NCBI GenBank assembly: GCA_976551045.1
Contig: CDPCPM010000103.1
Coordinates: 4,526,001 to 4,590,000, forward strand
DNA from: Glaucostegus cemiculus
Lineage: Eukaryota
DNA length: 64,000 bases
Reading direction: 5' to 3'
Part shown: in pieces, positions 1,203-59,345 of the stretch
Numbering within the stretch: the first letter of the stretch is position 1
Layout of the letters: the number at the start of each line of letters is the position of its first letter
The notes under the pieces: model-generated
What the model was told of the DNA's origin: nothing
Database searches by the model: none
What the model saw: only the letters and a program-made list of their open reading frames with translations
Made by a program: the position numbers and the translations under genes

Positions 1203-1371
1203 TACCTGGTAGAGATGCTAGTGATTGCCTGATGAGAGTAGAGAAGGGGTCAGTATGTGTTTGTATACCCTCCCATCCCATTCTTCAAAACTCTCCAATG
1301 CCAGCCTACCTGGTTGCCACCTGCTTCCCTCAGCAGCCAGAACTTCATCTGCCATATTGTTTACACCACCT

Positions 1372-1541
1372 ACACAAAAAGTGCTGGAGGAACTCAACAG
1401 GTCAGGCAGCATCCATGGGGAGAAATAAACAGTTGATGTTTCAGGTCGAGACCCTTCATCAGGACTGGAAAGGAAGAGGGCAGAAGCCAGAATAAGAAGG
1501 TCGGGGGAGGGGGAGGAGCACATGCAGACAGGTGATAGGTC
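1372..1541 (-). mobile_element. Penelope-like element terminal repeat fragment
   Basis: GCTGGAGGAACTCAACAGGTCAGGCAGCATC...GTTTCAGGTCGAGACCCTTCATCAGGACTGG. Same family as the copies at 16.3, 20.9, 32.9 and 38.9 kb, and it contains a hammerhead core. Confidence 0.75.
1430..1467 (-). ncRNA. Minimal type I hammerhead ribozyme motif (CpG-decayed)
   Basis: Minus strand reads CAGTC-CTGATGA-AGGGTCTCGACCT-GAAA-CATC-AACTG: CUGANGA and GAAA cores, stem II GGTC/GACC, stem I CAGT/ACTG. Differences from an ideal GAAACGTCGACTG are CpG transitions. Confidence 0.7.
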
Positions 1542-3724
1542 CAGGAGTTTACACCACCTGGCCATACCACAGCAAGGCCAGCAATGGCGGCATACATGAT
1601 GAGGCAGAATCCCAGTTGATACAAACTTTAAATCATAACATTGTCAATTGACTTATTATTTGACTTCATAATTTACTGAATTAGTATAAAGAAACCTAAG
1701 GGACCAAAGAGTAGTGCCATGAGTTGAGGTCTCACAGCATAGCTGGATTCTTCTTTCTTTATAATACCCTTCACCTTTTTTTATCTTTATAAGAAGCTGT
1801 TGTCAGCACTGAATCAGAGGTGAATAGAGAGTGTCATGACATAGGATTACCAGCATGACTGGATGCTAAATTAAATGTTTGAGATGAAAGAATGGAAAAT
1901 GTGACATGCATTGATAGAATGCATTTACAGAATTCTAGAAAGATACCTTTGCAGATTAATGCAGACAAAAGGCACCTACACTAAACTGAATCATATTCGT
2001 AGAGCATGCTATTATACCCAGCAAACCACCCAGGATTTAAAATGCTACACACTGTCCAATCAACTCCAATGGTGAAATAAAAGGCCAGGCAATGTGAATT
2101 ACACTGTGTTACAAAGAGAGTCTATACAGTGACAAAAGATCAAATATTATATCACACTATTTCCCAAGAGGGAAGTTCCAATCAGTCTAACGTTGTATGG
2201 GGCATCATTTCAATTACTTAAATGGAAGTTTTGATGGTTACAAAATGATTTGTTTTCGGTTTGTAGTTAATCCATGCAGCACTGAATTTCTCTGGTAATT
2301 TTAAAAAGGCATTGCAATATCTCCATTATGATTTGTATAAAATGCTATAATTAATGAATATTTCAACCCTCAGTAAGTAGTCAATCTTATCTATATCTAA
2401 AATCAATCCTAACAATTATATGATTCCAATAGTTATTAAACTGTTTGTTTATGGATACTTCTTTAAAGTGGGTGGGATCTGGAGCCATCTTCTGAAGAAA
2501 GTCAATATGCAAAAAACAATATTTTACATCTTAAAATATATCAATTATGATTTCATTTTATCGACATATTAGGGCCTGCAAGTCTTGCCTGCGATGATGT
2601 CAAGTGTGTTAGCCAGATCTGACTTCATAGTACATAAGCCAGCTAATATGCATAAATGATTATGTGCCTCAACACATACAGTAACATGCATTTTGATAAC
2701 ACAGAGCAGTACAACAAATAATTCATTTCTAAATATTTAAAATAGAGCTTGTGCCAATTTGCAACCTGCTTTTATATGCAAAATAATCAAAAAGTAATTA
2801 AGATGCTGTAAGTAGAACAGAAAAATCAAAACTACTGCCTTATGAGATTTTCCTAATAAACACAACAATTATGCATTCATTGCCATAATTAAAACAGTTT
2901 TGTCCTTTGGTCACATGCTGTTTGTGAAATAGTCACTAAGATACTGTTCATTTGTATCAGAGACATTTCTTGTTCCCTGTTCCTTACCTGAAAGTTTATT
3001 TAATGGTAACAATTAAATATTTCATTGTCATGGTTCAATTAAATAGTTTGGCCTTAGAAAATTGGGGATTGTAAAGTGAGGACGGAACATGCTTTGATCC
3101 TCCTTCCAGGGTTATTGTTTCATTAATAAATGAACATGTCATTTGTCTCACCAGAGGGAGCTCATGCCCTCCAGGCTTCTTCCTTTTTTGTTAGGGTTTT
3201 ATAAAGATGAATTTCCAGTGCTCTAAAATACCATGGATTAGTAGTTAAGCTTGACAGCACTTCGGGGAGTAGTGGGCTTAAAGTGTCTCACACAGGTCTC
3301 CAAAGCACTTGTTTACTAATAGGGAAATCAACGGCCGTCTGCAGCTGCTGATACCACATTACCATTTAGAAAGACGGACACAGAGATAGCAATCCACACA
3401 GGTTTAATAATTATTACAATATCCACATTTTTCTCATAACTGTAAAGCTGGTATTTTATGACTGAATCCAACATCTGGTAATAAGCAATGCTTCTGACAA
3501 GATCATAAGTGTTTACTGCTGAAGTATTTTGCCTAATCTGGATTTTAAAACATCATTATTGCAGTTAAATGTTATATATCTTTGAGTGTGCTAGAAACTC
3601 CCAGTTTGTACATTACAAAATGTTTTGCGATATATGAGAAACTGTCTCAGTATCAAAAGTTCCAGGTACATTTAAAAATCCTACTGTTTTTTGGAGTGAA
3701 TGGGCTTTTGAAGAAGGAGTAGCC

Positions 3725-3960: not shown

Positions 3961-5084
3961 AACTGAGTAACAGCAGCCTGTCCATGTTAAGAAGGCAAAG
4001 AGGTCAAAGGCACTTTGAGTCTCAATTAAATTGTATAGCTGAGTTAAGGGAACTATAAGGGAGCCCAGATAGAGCATATTGGATTTAAGCCCTTCCAATA
4101 TTCAGGCAGACCTGGGTGAATGGGAGAGAGGATCATGGTGGGGGTTTCTAAGGAGGATGCTTCTCTTCCTCCTAGTCTATGAAAAATTCAAGTGACAATG
4201 ACACGTTTGATACTGAGACAGTTTCTTACATATTGCAAAAGAAAGTTCCAGTGAATAGGGTGGGAGTTTCTAGCACACTCAAAGATATAAAATATTTAAC
4301 TGCAATAATGATGTCTTAAAATCCAGATTAGGCAAAAAGATGCAGCTGCAAACACATAATGACGTCAGAAGCAAAACTCATGTACCAGACAGGTCTCTCC
4401 TTAAACTGCAATTGGAGTTACATTTTACATGAAACAAACTCAATATCCCTAGCAAAACAACCTTCTGCCTGAAGAAGGCTGTTGGTTCAGCCATTCAGCA
4501 CCAGGTGCTGTAAAAGGGGCAACAGTCCATTAGCAATGATAATGAGGCTGTAAGGGTATAGATCCAGTTTGGATGCTGTGACAAGGCTTTGCCTGTCAAT
4601 TTTGGACAGTTAAAGTAGATCACGCTGTCTCTACTCTTACATGAAGAATGACACCTTGGGCAGGAGTACACCATCTCCTGAGCTGTTTGTTGATATGAAT
4701 TAATAATTTTATGAGAAAACTAGGAATTGGGAAGGATTAATAAAAAAATATATATTTCTTCACTGAAGAACATTTCTAATATCTTTGATATTAATTAGTG
4801 AACATTGTTGATGATCATTTATGATCTGAGAATCTTTGCTTAATATTTCCTAAACAATTGATCTACCATACTAAGGACTGCACATGTATAAATAAAGAAT
4901 ATTTTCTAACAAGATCATTTTCAGATTAAGTATTATTCATAGACTGCTTGGAAGATAGATACAGCATATTTCCATAATAATATTGCTTCCTAAAGTAGCA
5001 GAAATGCCTTCATTGGAAATTCACGGTCTTGTCTGAAACATGCAAAGAATGGCAATATTAGAAATTTATATTTGAAATGTCATT

Positions 5085-5290
5085 TCTTTTATTTACTTAC
5101 AGGATGTGGGGATGAAGGCTAACAATAATTGCAACCCCCGGATTGTCCACAACAAAGTGGTGGTGAACCACCTTCTTGAATTACTTTAGTCCTTCTGATG
5201 AAAGCATTCCCACAATGCTCTTGGGTAAGTCATTCCAGGATTTAGAAGCACTGATAGACCAGAGATACACAGTATTTCCAAATCAAGGAA
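5085..5290 (-). mobile_element. 3' end of a decayed CR1/L2-group LINE
   Basis: TTTATTTACTTACAGGATGTGGG...GTGGTGGTGAACCACCTTCTTGAA...TTCCAGGATTT...TATTTCCAAATCAAGGA matches the antisense tail pattern of a common shark/ray LINE (recalled). Confidence 0.55.
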
Positions 5291-7080
5291 AGCCTGTTTG
5301 AAATTATTTTCTCCAGCCTGGTGCAAAGGTGCTGAATCAGTTAATAGTGTAGTTCTAAGGGAGCTATGCGACTTGTACTTTACTTCTGTTACCTGAGTGC
5401 AGGATCTTCCAGTGTCGATGTAGCATAGTGTATTTGGCCACTGGGCATTTCAGGAAGTGCTTCATAGTGTTTTTTTTACACTAACACCAATTGTTTACCT
5501 TTCATTCAAATATTCTATGGAATTGATAGCTTCTGCGCAAGTAAACTTATATTAAGGAGATTTGTAAATAAATACATTTTATATTCCATCCATATAAATG
5601 CCCAGTTCAAAATTTACAAACAGTTCAGCTTCATCTTAACAATCAAAGAAAGCCAGAAGATTACTGCTTTCAGTTGGTTGACCATCAATCCTTGTTCCAT
5701 TGGGTGATTAAAGAGAGCTGGTAGTTAAAGCATTACATCAAAACTATCTTAATTGGTGCAAGGTTTAGCCCTTTCTATGCAGAGAGGGAAAAGGTGGAAT
5801 AGCCTTTTCAAGTCACATGAAAGTTTCTGGGATGAATATGGCTAATTAGATTAATAAGTAGCTTAATTTATCAGAGCTGAGAATTTCAACAGCCACACAC
5901 TGGAGTAAGAAAGATTAGTGTGATTTTAGTTTCTCCAGCTTGTACTAAAACTTCATTAAGCAAAGACAGAAAGCTTTTTTTTGGCCTGGATTAGAAAAAT
6001 GTTGAATAATCAGAAATGTCACTTTACTAGAATGAGGCTTATTAGGCAGAAGAAGGGAACACTTTATTGGGGCCTCTTGTGACATGGTTAGAATGTTTGG
6101 CACAAATGAGTCTAGATTACTGGGACTTCAAGGAATTCCAGTGTTGGTTCATGGGCAGACATAGAAACCACTGTATTAAAAAAATTCTTTCGTTTTCAAT
6201 TCATTATTTTTCTCCCTGCCCTATTGAAGACATAGGGATAACTATAGGGATGGTTTTATGCTATCCCACTCATCTCCCATCAGACAGTTATAAGGATGGT
6301 TTTACCACTTCCCCCTACCTCCCCTCACACACCTCATTTTATTTCCTGTTTAATCAACAGTGACTAACAATGAACAAGTTGTAAAATACCAATGTGCCAA
6401 CCAATCGTCTGGATTTTCCACCTAGCTATTTGGGTTAAAATGATTGACCGAGTGTTTGTGGATTATTCTATCTATGCCGTATCCTCTGATGTTTTTTCCC
6501 ATGCGGGTGTTACACATCTATGAACCAGGTCAGTGAGAAACTATTTGGCTGAATGAAGGGGGAGGAAGGGACATCATTCCCACTCTTATTTTAATTCATA
6601 AACACCATATTTTAACAGAACTGTGATCAAGAGATTCTCTTTCTTAATTCAGAGTCAATGAAGCCAAACACAAGTGATATAAATTCTTACCCTGTTTGAA
6701 ATTATGAAGTTCACCAGAAGCCTATTTTAGACCACCAGGTTGGAAATTACATACAAAATTGATGGTAAGTTTGCTTAAACAGCATTCTATTATGCTGCAG
6801 AATACAAGTTTTCTTCATATTATTTTCTTACATTGAGACTGAACTGAAATTTAAGAAGTTAAACAGATGAAATAAAATTTCATGCAATTTTTAATTCAAG
6901 TAAAATTGTAAATCATTTGGGGAAACAACACCCGCCACATACAAATTTATACGTTCACAAATCTCAATTTCATCATAATAGAGATAGAGAGAAAGAAAGC
7001 GGTTTAAGAATGATTTTACCTGTTTACACTCCAGTGGACTTATGCGTTTACAAGTTTGATATAGACGGACCATGAGAAGC

Positions 7081-7480
7081 ATGTGGCCGAACACCAGATG
7101 TACCTCTGGTTTCAAATCCAGTGACGACTATTAGGAGAGGATTAAAATCTCCTCAGTACCTTGGTTAGCGTTACTATGTGAGGTTTGATGTTATTTCAAC
7201 CTGGTTCTTAGGTGACTTATACCCATTGGAGAAAACTTCCTTAAATCTGGTGTGAAATTAGTCCTCTCTGATTCAGGATCATCGGTATAGAAAGTGGAAG
7301 GAGACAGCGTGCTGAACATAAGGGGTCATTTTCAGTGTGACCTACTGTTGTAGCAGAGTAGATGGAGCTTTACTTTTCATTTAATTGTTCACTATCTGAT
7401 ATGAAAGCACTTAATCTTGAGAACCTGAAAGGGAAAACATTCTCTCTACTATCTCTCATCCAGATGAACATAAAATTCAT
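7081..7480 (+). mobile_element. Ancient tRNA-type SINE relic, copy A (possibly LF-SINE-related)
   Basis: B-box-like GTTTCAAATCC at 7109-7119. The first ~130 bp align by eye to 8691-8815. The 3' part GTAGATGGAGCTTTACT...GATGAACATAAAATTC is SINE-tail-like. Confidence 0.5.
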
Positions 7481-7890
7481 GCAAATAATAGAGGTTCAAT
7501 AATTAACATTTTTTTTCCATTTGCTGAGATGATTATCAAGATATGTTAGCAAGGGCTGACTTTTCAAAATTCTTCTCACATCTTGGTGTTTCAGGAGCAT
7601 TCGATGTGGATTTAATTTTAAAGCTAGATAAATCTGTTGTGGGTGGAAGAAGCCCTTGATGAAACTAAAATTATATCTCCATTAGAACATCCATGCTTAC
7701 AGCCAATTGATACTTATTTTCTATTGAAGCATCTAACAGGTTATTGTCAGAATACTGGAAAATAATCTTCAACTGTTTGAAGCAATGTTCCTGTGACAGC
7801 CAAAATGAATTGTCAATTTAATAAAGTAAGATATGTATTTATATAAACCCTTATTACGTATCACAGGATCATTTTAGGCACAATGGTTAA

Positions 7891-7936
7891 GAATGCAGTA
7901 CAGGTAAACTCAGAGGAGTTTACCTGTACTGCATTC
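7891..7936. repeat. Perfect 21-bp inverted repeat with 4-nt loop
   Basis: GAATGCAGTACAGGTAAACTC-AGAG-GAGTTTACCTGTACTGCATTC; the arms are exact reverse complements. Confidence 0.97.
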
Positions 7937-8077
7937 CAAACAATTGTTCAATGTTTGTGGTGGCTGTGAATGAACAAAAAATGTTCACCAACAAACCAGG
8001 GAAAGTTTATCAAGTACTTTGAATAAAGCATGAAATATTTAATCTCCTCCCAAACCACTGTAATGTTTGATATTATG

Positions 8078-8682
8078 AGGACTTAGGAGTATAGGAGTTG
8101 GGATATTACATTGCAATTGTACAAGTCGTTGCTGAGGCACTTGGAGTACTGTGTACAGTTTTGGTCACCCTGTTATAGGAAAGATGTGGTTAAACTAGAA
8201 AGAGTGCAGAAAAGATTTACGAGGATGTTGACTAGAGGGCCTGTGTTATAGGGAGAAGTTGCCCAGGCTAGGTCTTTATTCCTTGGAATGTAGGAAAATG
8301 AAGGGTCACTTTATGGAAGTGTTTAAAATTATGAGAGGCATAGATAAAGTGGACGGTAACAGTTTTTTCTCTAGGGTAGTGGAGTCCAAAGCTAGGGGAC
8401 GTTAATTTAGGATGAGGGGGAAAGATTTAAAAGGGACCTAGGGACAACTTTTTCATGCAGAGGGTGGTAAGTACATGGACTGAGCTGCCAGATGAAGCGG
8501 TTGAAGCAGGTGCAATAGTATCATTTAAGAAGCGCTTGCATAGGTACATGGAGGGGTGAGGCCTGGAGGGATATGAGCCAACGCAGGAAATTGGGACTAG
8601 GTGGATGAGCACCATGGTCTGCATGGACTCGTTGGGCCAAAGGACCTGTATATGTGCTGTATTGCTCTGTGAATCTATGTCT
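8078..8682 (+). mobile_element. 5'-truncated CR1 LINE
   Basis: Encodes HLEYCVQFWSPCYRKDVVKLERVQKRFTRML (CR1 ORF2 C-terminus). 3' tail GGGCCAAAGGACCTGT...GTGCTGTATTGCTCTGTGAATCTATG. Confidence 0.92.
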
Positions 8683-8690
8683 CAGCTACA

Positions 8691-8820
8691 GGCTGAACAT
8701 CGGCCGTTCAACTCTGGGTTCAAATCCAATCGAAAATGACAGGATTAAAGTTTCCTCAGTGCCTTTCTTAAAGTTCTGTGTGAGGTGTGGTTTATCTCAA
8801 ACCTGTTCCTAGCTAACTTA
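8691..8820 (+). mobile_element. Ancient tRNA-type SINE relic, copy B
   Basis: Perfect B box GGTTCAAATCC at 8717-8727. Shares AGGATTAAARTYTCCTCAGTRCCTT and CTRTGTGAGGT with copy A at 7.1 kb. Confidence 0.5.
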
Positions 8821-9791
8821 GACACACTGCAGAAAATTGTCTTGTGCCCGATACTGGGTGATTGATAAAGAAAATGGAAAAAGATGGCATACTGCTGCAA
8901 TAGGGAGTACTTTTCTGAAGCTGGTATTTCCACAAAGGTACAGCTTCGAAGTTCTGGCTATAGCTCAAATTTCTATCCTTGTGTATCAAGGTTAACAATG
9001 CAACTAACTGTGTGAATTCCAGTTACAAATTACAGATGATGAAGCTAACAGAAAAACTGTAAACTAACACCCAGATGCAAAGATAATTTAAAGCAAAAAA
9101 AATGGATGAAATTATGGATGATTCTTATTCATTTTTGTGAACATTCCAATGCATTGAAATCCCTACTGCTGCAACAATTAATTCAATACTTTAATTAAAA
9201 GACCAATAAATTTTTATCTCCTCCATTTGGTGGTTGATGGTTGATTAACAGATCAGATTTCCCTCCTGCTCTAGATTTTTGATTCCATTGGAAGCGAAAC
9301 ACTCTGGATAGCTGAGGACAGGAATAAAGGAAACCACAAATACAAAAATAGCCAGAACTGAAAGAACATGAGAGTTTTGGATGATTGTTGCCTGGCTATA
9401 GAGAGAGGAAGCATGCAGGATCAGAATTTTACATTTAAGGCATTGATTGCATACCAATATAGGTGAACCAGTACAAGGCCAATACATAAATGAGTTATGG
9501 TCTGAAGTAGGATATAGGCAACTTTGTTTTAGTTTTTGAATTCCCATTTTCCTAGTGATTTTCTCTCCTGACTTCGATCTACCTGACAGTAGTGACAAAG
9601 TCATTCAGAAAGCTCTTTAATACGTAGGATTTTACACAGTGAATGCTAATCAGCCATTCAGTAACAGGAATGGAAGAGACGGGGAATGATTGAGAAGAAA
9701 ATTCGCATTTAAAGATCATTCTCTCTCCTTCCATGTGCAGCTTCCATGGATAATGATTAGATGAGGTGCCCCAGCAACTTCTCTCCAACAC

Positions 9792-10944: not shown

Positions 10945-10985
10945 CCAGTTAATGTTTCGGGTCAATAACCCTTCCTCAGAACTGG
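10945..10985 (-). ncRNA. Minimal type I hammerhead ribozyme motif
   Basis: Minus strand reads CCAGTT-CTGAGGA-AGGGTTATTGACCC-GAAA-CATT-AACTGG: perfect 6-bp stem I CCAGTT/AACTGG, stem II GGGT/ACCC, and intact CUGANGA and GAAA. Confidence 0.7.
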
Positions 10986-11052
10986 GGGAAGAGTTGGAGG
11001 GTTTACAGTGTACCACTATACAAATACTGTTAACGCTCCACTATTCCCCAGT

Positions 11053-11727: not shown

Positions 11728-11810
11728 ACAAAACCAGAAAATGTTGGAAATCTAGCAATGTTTCTGGAAAGAAACACCAATCAATATTTCAGGTCAGTGA
11801 CCCTTCCTCT
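11728..11810 (-). mobile_element. Degraded Penelope-like terminal repeat
   Basis: AAAACCAGAAAATGTTGGAAAT...TCAATATTTCAGGTCAGTGACCCTTC, ending in the hammerhead stem II region. Confidence 0.55.
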
Positions 11811-16296: not shown

Positions 16297-16567
16297 ACAA
16301 AAGAGACTTCAGATGCTGGAATCTGGAGCAACACACAAAACACTGGAGGAACTCAGCGGATCAGGCAGCATTTATTGGAGGGAAATGGACAGTTGATGTT
16401 TTGGGTCAAGACCCTTCATCCGGACTGGAATGAATATGCATGTATACTAGTTATCTCTCCTCTCTCTTTCCAGTCCGGATGAAGTGTCTCGACCCGAAAT
16501 GTTGCCTGTCCATTTCCCTCCACAGTTGCCTGACCCATTGAGTTCCACCAGCATTTTGTGTGTTGCT
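16297..16567. mobile_element. Inverted pair of Penelope-like terminal repeats, each with a hammerhead-like motif
   Basis: Left arm 16327-16430 and right arm 16468-16567 are imperfect reverse complements around a 37-nt spacer. Hammerhead-like motifs at 16390-16427 (-) and 16471-16508 (+). Confidence 0.85.
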
Positions 16568-19185
16568 GGAGTATGATAAGTGTTCATTTTCTACAATGTT
16601 GAAGGGTGACCCCTGGAACTCACCTCTGGACAATGCTGCACCCCTCATAGTTTAGATGGTAGTGGAGAGAGGGGGGCAAAAGAATGATTAAAAAATATGC
16701 AGTGCCGTGGGGAGGGACTGGAAATAAATGTGTGCTTGACTGATCTGAGAGACATAGTGGTTTATTTGGAATATTTTATTAATTCTGGGGAGATGGAGGT
16801 AACCAACATAATAGAATTATTACCCATTTTTGAAAGGGGGGGCCTTCTCCCTCAGCATTGTGCTTAGTTGCTCCAAGCATTAGTAATGAATTACAAGATT
16901 TTGATTCAGTAATGATGAAGAATTGACAAATATACATAAAGTTAGGCTGGGGTATAGGCCACATACCCCAGCTGGTGTTCCAATATTTGCTCTTATACCA
17001 GCAGATGATATGTTTTTTGTTTTGAACATTTTACTCTGTTAGAAGTACTTTATAAATACAAGTTGTTGTTGAAGACAATTGCATTGACAAGTGCAGTTGG
17101 AATAAATTTAGGTCGCTATATAGCTGTTATCTACTGCAGATGCAATGTGTCAATGATGAATTGTTCATCATTGGCACATTGCAACAGCAGAGATGCTGAA
17201 GGAGGAAAAATCTTTCTGAAATATTTCCAAGTATTTGCAACCAACTACTATGAAGGCAATGATTGTTGTTAGGTAGTCTAACCTAATTTATATTATAATT
17301 TTCCCATCACAATGTAGGACATTGTTCTTCACAGGCAAGTCAATGGTAATACTATTGTTCATATTTATGTCAATAATTGCTTTCTTGGTGGCCTTCATTG
17401 GTTTCATCATTGGATTCATAGTAGCTGATTGTTAAACTGTAAAACGTTCAAGTGCAATAGTTTAACTCAATGTTTTTAGTAATATCAACCCCTGATCTAA
17501 AACCTAATAGGTATACAGCTTAAGAACAGCTTTCTGCTTTCTCACAGATGTTTAAAAATTAAATGCATTGAAGTGGTGACTGAATGACACAAGCTAAACA
17601 ATAGCTCATAACATTATGCAAGAGTATTTACATTGGAATAAGGGCTTGCTGAATGGGTGGGGGTAGTCAATAGTCAGGCACTACGAATATAACGAAAGTC
17701 TGTCCAAACTCCATTTCAATAAAAGCTTCTGTACAGAAGCAGAGCAGCTCATGGGGGTTGACAAACAGATTAGCTCAGGAATTTTACTTTTCTGAGAAAA
17801 CTGACTTAACACAATTGAAAAGATAAAACTAGAATCTGTAGCTCTATGGAAAGAACTTCCAAATTAAAGTTTAAGATGAATAGGTATTTTTTTTCCAATG
17901 CAAATTATAGCACAGTGAAGTGCACAATTTGGAACAAGGGATTGTTTTAAAAAGTGAAGGGTTTAAAGTCCTTTACAAAATATTTAAGTCATGTATGAAA
18001 TGTCATTTAAGTTCCAGATTTGGTAGATAATTATCTCTTGTGCTGAGTAAATCATGAAATGTTTCACTTTAGCTAACTCAAGGCGTCTTTGCACCACAGC
18101 CACCAAACAGTTCACATTAAAATTGAGTTGGGATGGCCTCCACTAATACAGCCACACAAGTATTTCCTTAATACTGTGTAGACAGTTCAAATGCCTGGCA
18201 GTATTCCATCATGAGCTTGTTGGTTTCTCTTTCTTCCGCACAATATTAGAAGTCTTGCACCAGGGGTTTTACATTAACTTAATTTGACCCTTGAGCATGC
18301 CCAAAGTAGCTTTGAGAGAATGAAGTAAATGCTGTACCTGCTGAAATGTTAGCATCATTTTCCGTCTCCATATGTCTCTACTATGTTCACAGTAACAAAG
18401 AAGCGTTAATACAGTTTGCACCAAAATGTCCAACTGTTACACCGCAAAAGGGAATGCAATGTGTTCAAATTGATACCTAGTTTCACAGAAATATTGCAGA
18501 AGTCTGCCCATTTGCCCAGAAACATCAAGCAGCTGTTTGCAAAAAGAAGCAGTTGACCTCTTTCTCGGGTCAACATTTGAAGATGAAGGCCAGCCAACTG
18601 GATTTAAGAGATAAGTTCATTCCAGTAACATTGCCGTTCACCCCTAAGATCAGCTGACGCCAAGGGTTCAAAAGCTCCATTTTGTTTTGTTTTAATCCGC
18701 TGAAATAAATATGTATTAAAGAATGTTTAAAGATAATGCAGTTGATTAATCTAGATAGGTAAATGAGGCCACACAGCATCTTTCTAAAGATGTGTCCTGG
18801 CTCCCTTCTGTACAAAAGAACTGAAGCCAACAGCTCATAACCTGAAAAGGCTGGAGAAATCGATGCTTCATTCAAGGCAATTGATCAGCTCCAAATTAAT
18901 TAGACTTTAAGGCTTATGGTAGTTGATAAGATAACTTGTTAATTTTGCCATCAATAGCATTTCCCCTTAAGCAGCAAATACCCTCTTGTTGGGGAAAAAA
19001 AACACCTGTGGCAGCGAGGGTGAAAAGGATCAGTGCTGACCTCTTTTCATCTCCCAGGATTTAACTGAATGTGAGGCTTTGATGACAACAGTCGTTTAAA
19101 ATGTATTGTCTCAATTGCAAAAATGAGGCAACTCAGAAGGCACCATGTACCACTGCTGGCTTGGTGGCAAAATGGGGAAAACGGG

Positions 19186-20934: not shown

Positions 20935-21116
20935 CACTCATGGACTTACTCAGCAAGTCAGGCAACATCCATGGAGAAAGGAACAGAATTAACATCTTAT
21001 ATCATTGACCTGAAATGTTAGCTCTGTTTCTGTCTCCATGAATACTGACTGCTGAGTATTTCCAGCATTTTCTGTTTTTATTTCAGATTTCAGGAATCTG
21101 TAATTTTTTTGCTTTT
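20935..21116. mobile_element. Inverted pair of Penelope-like terminal repeats
   Basis: TACTCAGCAAGTCAGGCAACATCCATGGAGA...TTAACAT (20947-20995) faces ATGTTAG...TCTCCATGAATACTGACTGCTGAGTA (21015-21058). Confidence 0.8.
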
Positions 21117-27901: not shown

Positions 27902-29590
27902 TGTCACAGTGTTGATTGAAGAGCAAGCTCACAGAGAACCCAAATGCAGCACACTGATACAAGACTGGAGTCAGGATACTTCCTCAGGACCAGACACAGG
28001 CAACACTGGAAGGAAATCTTGCCTCGGAGATCTGAGTAGTAATCCCAACACGACCTGAATCTTCAAACAGGACTAGAGAACACAGGACTGCTCTGGAGTA
28101 GACCACTCTAAGCAGCTAGGAACCAAAGTATACCCTAAGGTTGACCAATCCTCTGATTGTCAATCCTCTGACTGTGAAATACTTTTACAAATGCATTTCA
28201 AATTCTTTTATAATATTAACTGAAGAGTTAATTTTAGCAATAAAGAAAATGAAATTTCATATATGCTTATTTTTCAAATGGCATGGTTAAAAGAATGGTG
28301 TGGTTAAAAGAACCAGAAATAACGCAATATTAGATTTGGGTAAAAGTTTGAATCTGTTTTAGTTAACTTGATTTTATGAACTAGAATTGCAGTAATTCAA
28401 GGCAAAAAAAATTAACATAGATATACGATACGTATATCAGATGTATCAGTAAAAAATGATTGAAATAGCAAGAAAGAGCTGCTGTTCATTTATAGCACAG
28501 TGACCAATAATGTCAGGCCTGCATTCAGATTTACAAAAAATATAAAGGGAAAACAAATTATCACAGAGTGCAAACATTAATGGATTAAACCAGCAAGTTG
28601 TGAATCAGGTTGAAAGTACATACTTTATTATCAAACCTTTTGCATTAAAATTGTTTTAAATTCCCATATTTTTACTATCTGTCTTTAAGCAGGTTCTTGG
28701 TAGGTAAGAGCCCATTCTGCAAGCTTCTTGGCTTCCAAGACTGCTGCAGGAATCTTATGTGGGAAGTAACAAGGTGAATACATCAATACGCATTTAGGCA
28801 AGGTTAATGTTAACTTAACCTAAGGGTTAACATGCAGGTTGATATTATCCAATGCATGTATCACAATTAAATGTCTTAGTATTTCTGGGCATTAATATCG
28901 TTATGGACTTTTTGGCATTTGACCTTGCTCATGGGGTACAGGAGCTGGTTGGCTGGGGTGGAATGGGGTGCAGAATAAGTTCCAAAAACTAAGTGGCCAT
29001 TTTGTGTTGTGCCATGAATTGCAGACTGGGAAATCTTAAATACTAAATTTTAAAAAAATGTTACGGGATTTCCACAGTGGAAGCATCACTGGGAGTATAA
29101 TGCCAATGCTAAAACAAACCCAAGTGCACAGTCAAAATATCGGCCAAAAATCTAAAAGATCAATTCAATGCAAAATAGACATAGAAAAGTATCATTAAGT
29201 GCCGTATTCTTATTTCTGGGAAGAATAGAGCAAATAACTGAATTTATAAAAGACAAACCAATCTCTCCTCCTCCCCCATCTTTTCCTCACTGACATCTAC
29301 ACTTCCACAAAGCCAACAACAGCTATACTATTACTGCAGGGCACATCCTTCTGTTCCATTGAAAGGATAAATTATGAAGATCACTGAAAAAAGAATATCT
29401 TAAAAATGAAATAGAGAACTTAGTTGTAAGATTTTGCCGAGTGAAGGAAGCACAAACAATTTATGAGCCTCTTTAAAGGAATACTCAGCAAATGACTGGT
29501 AATAATTGTAAGTATAAATTGCTGCATTTAGTGGCGCTCCCTACACCATACTAATTATGGGATGCTGTCATGGAAATTCAATGTCTTGAA

Positions 29591-29645
29591 TTTCTCTCTC
29601 CAGAGATGCTACCTAACCTGCTGATTACTTCCATTATTTTCATCT
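29591..29645 (+). mobile_element. Short Penelope-like terminal repeat fragment
   Basis: TTTCTCTCTCCAGAGATGCTACCTAACCTGCTGATTACTTCCA, the same motif as in the other copies. Confidence 0.55.
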
Positions 29646-32849: not shown

Positions 32850-32966
32850 AAATCAAAAACTGCAGATGCTGGAAACCTGACATAAAAACAGAAATTGCTG
32901 GAAACACATAGCAGCTCAGGCAACATCTGTGGAAAGAGAAACAGTGTTAACGTTTCAGATTGAAGA
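32850..32966 (-). mobile_element. Penelope-like terminal repeat fragment
   Basis: ACTGCAGATGCTGGAAACCTGACATAAAAACAGAAATTGCTGG...CAGTGTTAACGTTTCAG. On the minus strand it keeps the un-decayed GAAACGTT-AAC hammerhead segment. Confidence 0.8.
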
Positions 32967-37714: not shown

Positions 37715-38872
37715 ATATTGCAAAAAGTTCAATGAAATCCCAAAGACTAGTTGGGACAAGAATCAGAATGGCATGCTGGACAGTTCTGGTCCTTTTTTAA
37801 TTATTGGTTTATGTGACGTTGCACTGGAAAAGTTCATGATTGCTATAATGGAGCATTGTGGTGAGAAAGGAAGTACTGCAGGTATTCAATGTGCATGGAG
37901 GAAATAAATTAGGCCAGAAAGGTGAAAGATCTGGGTGAAAAAGTATAGAGTTTAAGGTAAAAAATCAAGCCCATGTCTTCATTAACAAAGTAATAGCATT
38001 TCATGGAAAGATTTATGAGAAATAAATTATACAGACACTGAGAAATATAAACCTGCAAATGTTAGAGTTGAAAATATTAGGTTTATAAAAATCATAAGAG
38101 TGACTATAACACAGGAAGCAATCTGCAGAGATCAGTCCTCTGATCATTCCCCATTTCTTCATTGCTTTCAAGGAATGAAGAAAATGCTCTTGTCAGTATG
38201 TTCTGGCACCTTTAAGGAGAAAGACTTTATGCTTTTCTCTGAAATATTCAGCTGGCAAACAATTACAGCAGGACTGACTGGCTACAAAATATTATTTTTC
38301 AAGTTATATTTCATAACATATATCTAGTTTTCTCTTGACTAATGCTTGAATTGGCTTGTGCATTCACCACTAACTCCACCCCACCTATCCTGCATATCTA
38401 TTCCATAAATTCATCACCTTCCGTGTAAAGTTGTTAAATCTGAACTCTGACCCTCTCTATATTTTGATTTAATCTTGGGCTGTGATTGCATTTATTGTTC
38501 ATCACTGATTTCCCTGATGGTGACCATTGGAATCCCAATTGTGATGGTGCCTCACTATGATTATCTTTGAAAGTTTATGTTGATCAGCCATGAAGCTGCA
38601 TGTTACTCAGCCTCAGTAGAACTGGTAAGACCTTACCTGAAGGTACTTTTATTATCCCAGAACTAGTTTGATAAACATTGCAGAGATGCCATAACCCCAA
38701 GGACAGATTTAGCTCAATAAGAAACCTCCGCAACTCAGTCCCGGGGCAGTTAGTAATGAACAGTAGATGTACCAACAGATATTCTCTCAGATTATTGTTC
38801 AAAATAATCTCCCCTTTACTTATGTTTAGCAGACTGATAAATGATTCCCAGATTTAGCAACAAGCCCTATGT

Positions 38873-38993
38873 GGGGTCTTGATTCAGAATGACAACAGTT
38901 CCTTTCTCCCCACAGATGCTGCTCGACCAGCTGAGTTCCTCCAGCAGTTTTCTTTTTGCTCCATATTCCAGCATCTGCAGTCCCTTGTATCTC
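38873..38993 (+). mobile_element. Penelope-like terminal repeat fragment
   Basis: CACAGATGCTGCTCGACCAGCTGAGTTCCTCCAGCAG...TTCCAGCATCTGCAGTCCCTTG; it begins in the hammerhead stem II region (GGGGTCTTGA). Confidence 0.8.
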
Positions 38994-41842: not shown

Positions 41843-41994
41843 NNNNNNNNNNNNNNNNNNNNNNNNNNNNNNNNNNNNNNNNNNNNNNNNNNNNNNNNNN
41901 NNNNNNNNNNNNNNNNNNNNNNNNNNNNNNNNNNNNNNNNNNNNNNNNNNNNNNNNNNNNNNNNNNNNNNNNNNNNNNNNNNNNNNNNNNNNNN
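41843..41994. other. Assembly gap (152 N)
   Basis: Run of N. Confidence 1.
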
Positions 41995-49837: not shown

Positions 49838-49988
49838 AAACAAAAGAAAATGTTAAATGGAGATACTCAGCAGGTTAGGCAGCATCTGTAGTGGTAGAGA
49901 GGACATTAACTAGAAATATTAGCCATTTATCTTTGCACAGATACTATCTGATCTGCTAAGTGTCACCAACACATCTTGTTTTTAGTTA
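49838..49988. mobile_element. Old inverted pair of Penelope-like terminal repeats
   Basis: ATACTCAGCAGGTTAGGCAGCATCTGT...TTAAC faces ACAGATACTATCTGATCTGCTAAGTGT. Confidence 0.7.
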
Positions 49989-59165: not shown

Positions 59166-59345
59166 TAAAATAAACAAAAACGCTAGAAATTTTCGCAGGC
59201 CAGTCAGCATCTGTGGAGAGAGAGATGTTTCAGTCCACTGACCTATCTGAAATGTAATCTCAACAGACGCTGTCTGATCTGCTAAGTATGTGCACCATTT
59301 TCTGCTTTTAATTTCAGATTTCCTGGGGTCTCAGTTGTTCTCTTT
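59166..59345. mobile_element. Old inverted pair of Penelope-like terminal repeats
   Basis: CAGCATCTGTGGAGAGAGAGATGTTTCAG..TGACCT faces CTGAAATGT...ACAGACGCTGTCTGATCTGCTAAGTAT...TTTCAGATTTCC. Confidence 0.7.

Follow-up and report, generated by a model that had tools for sequence, protein, structure and literature searches.

A decayed minimal hammerhead motif in a Penelope-like retrotransposon stump of Glaucostegus cemiculus, and a family of stumps that often begin at the motif's front edge

Introduction

A dispersed repeat near the start of a 64,000-nucleotide stretch of Glaucostegus cemiculus DNA (hereafter the window) was predicted from its letters to hide a minimal hammerhead ribozyme on the minus strand at 1430-1467. 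This raises the questions of whether the motif is a genuine hammerhead, what kind of element carries it, and whether that element depends on its cleavage. A consensus for the minimal hammerheads (min-HHRs) of metazoan Penelope pseudo-LTRs (pLTRs) has been given by Cervera and De la Pena in 2014 (PMC4209133, excerpts), against which the motif and its genomic relatives can be compared.

Results

The window motif is a decayed minimal hammerhead

Read on the minus strand, the window motif follows the layout that had been claimed for it: the 5' strand of helix I (1467-1463), CUGAUGA (1462-1456), an extra A (1455), helix II (1454-1443), GAAA (1442-1439), four nucleotides (1438-1435) and the 3' strand of helix I (1434-1430), with the cut site predicted between 1435 and 1434. 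The stems fared less well than the layout, as helix I is paired at only four of five positions, the C.A mismatch being the innermost pair (2.1-1.1) that adjoins the predicted cut site, helix II is closed by a G.U, and the helix III tetranucleotide, ACAU, is not self-complementary. All three departures fall on CpG sites of the intact form; CUGAUGA, GAAA and the UC dinucleotide at the cut site are kept. The window copy fails a minimal-hammerhead descriptor that calls for a complete helix I and a self-complementary helix III, and an Rfam covariance-model scan gave 13 matches at E ≤ 10, with no hammerhead among them. The motif alone folded no better than its shuffles (z -0.93) and neither did any of the six copies tested (z-scores near zero), although single-strand folding is uninformative when helix III is 2 bp long. 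CpG decay broke the palindrome of helix III as well as the innermost pair of helix I, and the window copy, a real but mutated minimal hammerhead, is therefore likely inactive. The hidden ribozyme of the original prediction is real as a family motif, but at this locus it is a decayed relic that is likely unable to cleave.

The motif is carried by the 3' end of a Penelope-like retrotransposon

The motif lies in an insertion of 175 bp with a perfect 13-bp direct repeat on either side (Table 1). A DNA search of the animal's own genome with the window repeat returned 2807 candidates, and the 40 that were scored comprised the window itself and 39 other places with 91-96% identity over 156-174 nt. 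Thirty genomic copies that were fetched have a common 3' end and a variable 5' extent, and the longest continue on their upstream side as a broken frame whose motifs are DKG-like, YIDD, a CX4CxxC linker and GIY-YIG with CCHH residues, that is, a reverse transcriptase (RT) followed by a C-terminal GIY-YIG endonuclease. The Pfam matches to these domains lie below the curated cut-offs (GIY-YIG, E 7e-4 in 1/5 fragments; RVT_1, E 1.8e-5 and 5.5e-4 in 2/8), with no relevant match in the other four of five and six of eight fragments, respectively. A protein homologue search among longer proteins found none, and a PDB search gave one match at E 0.36.

Searching the genome with an endonuclease fragment gave 54,155 candidates, of which 150 were scored and 30 loci chosen. 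With the query's own locus excluded, this independent test found a hammerhead-bearing repeat on the same strand, 181-534 nt downstream, at 26 of the 29 loci that had been picked by the GIY-YIG fragment alone (27/30 with that locus in), which, together with the RT and GIY-YIG frame, shows the Penelope link that had only been inferred. Among 19 loci chosen by RT, 14 had the repeat downstream and eight an inverted copy upstream; no intact full-length frame, direct tandem or element between two same-strand hammerheads was found among them, and all long copies were 5'-truncated. The 3' end of the family is bimodal: among 93 copies selected with a downstream pattern, 52 continue into an optional tail of about 40 nt, and homology in the window copy stops before it. 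The hallmarks of Penelope elements are thus present: 5' truncation, an inverted upstream copy, an optional tail and target-site duplication. Both the CX2-5CxxC linker between RT and endonuclease and the CCHH motif are found here, and in excerpts of PMC8557442 the linker ties to Neptune and Nematis among endonuclease-bearing Penelope-like elements, and the assignment to these clades is made by motif. The repeat is the 3' end, or pLTR, of a Penelope-like retrotransposon with a Neptune/Nematis-type linker. Taken together, we put at roughly 90% the probability that the window motif sits in a duplication-flanked Penelope-like 3' stump, likely made by a target-primed event that stopped early, and that this copy is likely inactive.

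In the window (1372-1467) and in family copies such as L089, one frame runs without a stop across motif and tail and has an ATG in the conserved block; in a tandem, this frame may form the beginning of the element's protein. Adjoining the insertion, the minus strand at 1100-1208 holds the start of a short tRNA-like interspersed repeat, which we take to resemble the HE1/V-SINE family of sharks and rays.

Table 1. Features of the insertion and of other family copies in the window
Feature	Position	Strand	Evidence or remark
Target-site duplication, copy at the element's 3' end	1359..1371	.	13/13 identical
5'-truncated insertion of a Penelope-like retrotransposon's 3' end (pLTR); optional ~40-nt tail absent	1372..1546	-	13-bp direct repeat at both sides; genomic homologues
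Conserved block 3' of the hammerhead, common to all subfamilies	1372..1429	-	Column frequencies; bimodal 3' ends
Minimal type I hammerhead motif with CpG decay at 1443, 1437 and 1434	1430..1467	-	Sequence and descriptor; intact form in 357 genomic copies
Pyrimidine tract, then CAG at the front edge of helix I; 5'-breakpoint hot spot in the family	1463..1495	-	Possibly initiator-like or splice-acceptor-like
Target-site duplication, copy at the element's 5' end	1547..1559	.	13/13 identical
Older copy	10945..10987	-	Passes the descriptor without the demand for a helix III palindrome, alone among window copies
Degenerate family copy	11733..11810	-	Profile, E 5.5e-8
Head-to-head inverted pair, core CGGAUGA	16331..16563	.	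Sequence and profile
Head-to-head inverted pair, both members truncated inside the motif	20941..21077	.	Profile
Short copy without hammerhead	29587..29641	+	Profile
Older-subfamily copy retaining GAAACGUU, truncated in helix II	32886..32966	-	Profile
Degenerate family copy	38869..38955	+	Profile
Head-to-head inverted pair	49845..49981	.	Profile
Head-to-head inverted pair	59173..59306	.	Profile

The family is abundant and mostly decayed

A profile built from genomic copies of the repeat gave, in its final form, 14 matches at 10 sites in the window, or about one site per 6.4 kb, in agreement with the one per 6-7 kb first estimated. These sites take in every place at which related motifs had been reported, all of which are family members, and add 29587-29641 and the pair at 49845-49981; the pair at 16.4 kb belongs to the family, but its core does not read as the CUGANGA expected of it. 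The first profile had 0 matches in the reversed window and in reversed 200 kb, and the final one 0 in reversed 800 kb. Elsewhere in the window, a near-perfect 62-nt hairpin at 17131-17192, with weak miRNA-family matches far below the gathering score in Rfam, is not a Penelope family member by profile, and 41843-41994 is a run of 152 N.

A non-random sample of the genome, 80 stretches of 10 kb at even spacing in large contigs (800 kb in all), held 172 profile matches, one per 4.7 kb, versus 0 in the reversed control. This extrapolates to about 600,000 fragments, and the stumps of the family likely number several hundred thousand. Most copies in this spaced sample are about 100-150 bp long, and 44 of the 172 matches form 22 head-to-head pairs, with no tail-to-tail pair and one direct tandem. 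The core is covered in 87 of the 172 matches; CUGANGA, GAAA and UH are kept in nine, the palindrome also in 2/87, and both helices as well, as the strict descriptor demands, in 1/87. The family is thus mostly relics.

Intact copies match the min-HHR consensus, and core variants are widespread

The exact 31 letters of the intact core have 357 matches in the genome, versus 0 for the reversed control, and these copies hold the CUGANGA, GAAA and stem pairing that the original prediction expected of a family consensus. One natural copy, L074, has 5/5 helix I pairs, 5/5 helix II pairs and a self-complementary ACGU. Intact copies have every item of the min-HHR consensus as it stands in excerpts of the PMC4209133 supplement, namely CUGANGA with an extra nucleotide, GAAA, UH, helices I and II, G10.1-C11.1 and a palindromic 15.2-16.2, so that the fit to a minimal type I hammerhead holds for these copies and not for the one in the window. 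The descriptor had 0 matches in five Markov controls and in the reversed 800 kb.

Clustering on downstream columns only separated an older subfamily with U2.1-A1.1 and GUU from younger ones with C2.1-G1.1 and GUC, which bears out the ancestral GAAAC-GUC/GUU read from the window copies. The C-G/U-A change at pair 2.1-1.1 (pooled Fisher p 0.007) and a weaker, partial G-C/A-U shift at 10.1-11.1 (p 0.008) amount to one or two changes in master elements, which are not independent across copies and are confounded by CpG decay. ACGU is the ancestral palindrome of both old and young subfamilies, the core is canonical by majority, and the helix I and II pairs are kept with a compensatory change. By column frequencies, core positions are no better conserved among copies than the downstream block.

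Hammerhead core positions are needed for cleavage. In this family, U4A is found in 22% and A9C in 20% of sampled copies (profile alignment) and the variants sort by subfamily; a pattern that leaves both positions free had 417 exact matches, and of the first 100 listed, counted by hand, 25 had U4A and 12 had A9C. Because the U4A and A9C subfamilies spread widely, catalysis may have been dispensable. The variants suggest that the family spread without a need for it, which agrees with excerpts of PMC11167929, where the hammerhead of an Anolis element depended on protein to cleave and insertion in vitro was unaffected by ribozyme mutations. A literature search for the U4A hammerhead change found no paper.

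Many copies begin at the front edge of helix I, with no excess at the cut site

A pattern lying 3' of the motif had 6428 matches; 90 of the first 100 listed were fetched and, once one overlapping locus was dropped, gave 93 copies in which breakpoints were placed. Thirty of these 93 young copies start at -7..+1 relative to C3, a rate of 0.053 per nt versus 0.006-0.009 in other intervals (p about 1e-11). When truncations were simulated as uniform, no false peak arose there (11 called, 16 true, of 150), and in contigs of four public runs it is at this edge that 5' loose ends are commonest, their flanks mostly in low agreement. An inverted partner accompanies 16 of the 30 hot-spot copies and is absent from the other 14. 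CAG at the edge is kept in 23 of 38 copies and its helix I partner varies. Target-site duplications of at least 8 nt were found in only 12 of the 93 copies, several of them likely by chance; as duplications were found for so few, most breakpoints rest on homology loss.

A pile-up of 5' ends at the cut site was rejected, with 5/143 in the spaced sample and 4/93 in the young copies, the latter equal to the background rate. Most copies span the cut site (125 of the 143 in the spaced sample reach 5' of it), and their templates were therefore presumably uncut at the hammerhead motif.

The sequence of the edge, CCAGUC/UCAGUU, is presumably initiator-like, and the front edge could be either an initiator or a splice acceptor. 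Excerpts of earlier work mention an initiator-like element in a pLTR (PMC3846280), an intron of Drosophila virilis that ends at helix I (PMC4209133), and a promoter and intron (PMC2377424). Inspected by eye, non-inverted hot-spot copies had no common sequence of the kind that a shared upstream exon spliced to CAG would leave, although varied host exons may have been captured there, and no junction of a precise fold-back at helix I was seen. We favour the edge as the template's 5' end, presumably reached by internal initiation and run-off.

The repeat is present on both strands in RNA reads of a related organism

No record of RNA type was listed as holding the repeat. The repeat occurs on both strands in three raw RNA runs of a related organism, and in these there is no site at which starts or ends of many molecules gather, nor a pile-up of read ends at the cut site. 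Libraries of fragmented RNA are insensitive to cut ends, and reads on both strands fit passive transcription and say little about cleavage. In run X23 of the related organism, about 3800 reads of one abundant transcript start their match exactly at the front of helix I (L074:1496), a case of a stump inside an expressed RNA.

Discussion

Our results point to the window stump as the likely product of target-primed reverse transcription that stopped early. In the parent element, judging by published work, the intact motif would be a weak minimal hammerhead that cleaves after GUC/GUU only as a dimer or with the help of protein. Dimer cleavage is reportedly the subject of Lunse et al. Reverse transcription would start 3' of the motif and read through the uncut ribozyme, as suggested by the majority of copies, which span the cut site, and by analogy with a lizard element (PMC11167929, excerpts) its starting point likely lies in the conserved block at 1372-1429. 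[quoted passage not shown] We tentatively propose, with the odds somewhat against us, that the stumps record the Penelope cycle in vivo, whereby the RNA begins at the hammerhead front edge, synthesis starts internally just downstream, and run-off yields hundreds of thousands of leader copies of 110-150 bp from uncut RNA, with catalysis dispensable and U4A and A9C cores spreading like canonical ones.

It is rather unlikely that in this lineage the motif has instead lost catalysis and persists solely as a structural relic, within the stretch of the pLTR that binds protein or acts as promoter. The success of the U4A and A9C subfamilies, the lack of excess breakpoints at the cut site and the lack of read-end pile-up there would all be expected of such a relic, as would the finding, in excerpts of PMC11167929, that ribozyme mutants of the Anolis element left insertion in vitro unaffected. 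The canonical majority core, the helix I and II pairs kept with a compensatory change and an ACGU ancestral to old and young subfamilies argue against it, and fragmented RNA libraries are a poor register of cut ends.

Less probable still, in our view, is that the short copies form a self-propagating non-autonomous family, SINE- or retrozyme-like, whose own transcript starts at the helix I front edge and is mobilised in trans by Penelope protein. Such a family would account for the sharp 5' edge common to 30/93 young copies with its initiator-like sequence and for the prevailing length of the copies, and retrozymes derived from Penelope pLTRs are described in excerpts of bioRxiv 10.64898/2026.07.22.740005. 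However, the 172 matches include a single direct tandem, hot-spot copies occur in both sequence types at a ratio similar to that of other copies (21:9 versus 48:15), which by that test leaves no separate short-only lineage, and the window copy itself begins about 80 nt upstream of the edge. We consider it highly improbable that the window copy is a working, possibly co-opted ribozyme: for all that it retains CUGAUGA, GAAA and the UC dinucleotide, the C.A next to the cut site, the missing palindrome and the G.U closing helix II are ordinary CpG decay, and the nearest same-strand copy, about 9.5 kb away, likewise lacks the palindrome. A chance likeness inside an ordinary repeat, as the Rfam scan and the folding z-scores near zero might suggest, is the remotest explanation, being largely refuted by the Penelope link and by a full consensus match at the position where Penelope elements carry the motif; the descriptor, moreover, has no hits in the controls.

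The motif itself is of a known kind, since Penelope pLTRs carry minimal hammerheads, and the window copy is likely an ordinary, dead example. According to excerpts of PMC4209133, min-HHRs share with our family a U-rich 5' flank, a helix I of 3-5 bp, CUGANGA with an extra nucleotide, G10.1-C11.1, GAAA, a palindromic 15.2-16.2, UH, the pLTR position and mostly single truncated copies; as monomers they did not cleave, and as multimers they did so at a low level. The about 600,000 copies extrapolated here are nearly all decayed fragments, versus 4,000-9,000 descriptor matches in coelacanth and Xenopus, counts that are not like for like, and the widespread U4A and A9C subfamilies are a difference from those min-HHRs. 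Neither the supplement file searched nor the chordate rows examined hold a chondrichthyan name. No paper on this family was found by title or abstract start; in the one paper on Penelope hammerheads that also mentions sharks, the word refers to the shape of the animal's head.

Neptune (or Nematis) elements, as described in excerpts of PMC8557442, are similar in having RT then a C-terminal GIY-YIG, the CX2-5CxxC linker, CCHH, 5' truncation, an inverted upstream copy and an optional tail of 30-40 nt, a likeness by motif; in contrast to them, no intact copy or direct tandem was found here at the 19 RT-chosen loci, and one direct tandem of the repeat among the 172 matches. The Poseidon element of Anolis carolinensis, PAc, also has a pLTR hammerhead, two 3' ends defining a tail, an uncut RNA template and no RNA-seq ends at the cut site, but belongs to a different clade without the linker zinc finger, and the helix I front hot spot of 5' ends found here is absent from its description in the excerpted text of PMC11167929. 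Additional to these systems are stumps that often start at the motif's front edge, not at its cut site, and abundant subfamilies with the core changes U4A and A9C. The value of the family lies in its sample size, as likely several hundred thousand stumps provide a base-resolution record of where reverse transcription ended. In that record the cut site is read through, helix I has a strong 5' edge at its front, and natural core variants have been amplified. With these natural sequences, the role of the hammerhead in Penelope transposition becomes testable.

Non-LTR retrozymes, reported in one chondrichthyan genome (bioRxiv 10.64898/2026.07.22.740005, excerpts), resemble our family in their type I hammerhead and Penelope pLTR origin but form head-to-tail tandems, versus the one direct tandem among our 172 matches in 800 kb. 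As a separate observation, copies L061-L066 (G000 C3 and C4) were considered as tandem arrays and rejected, since they share long flanks on either side of one insertion; they represent a single intact-core insertion, with a changed helix I 5' strand, that was multiplied inside a larger duplicated GC-rich segment.
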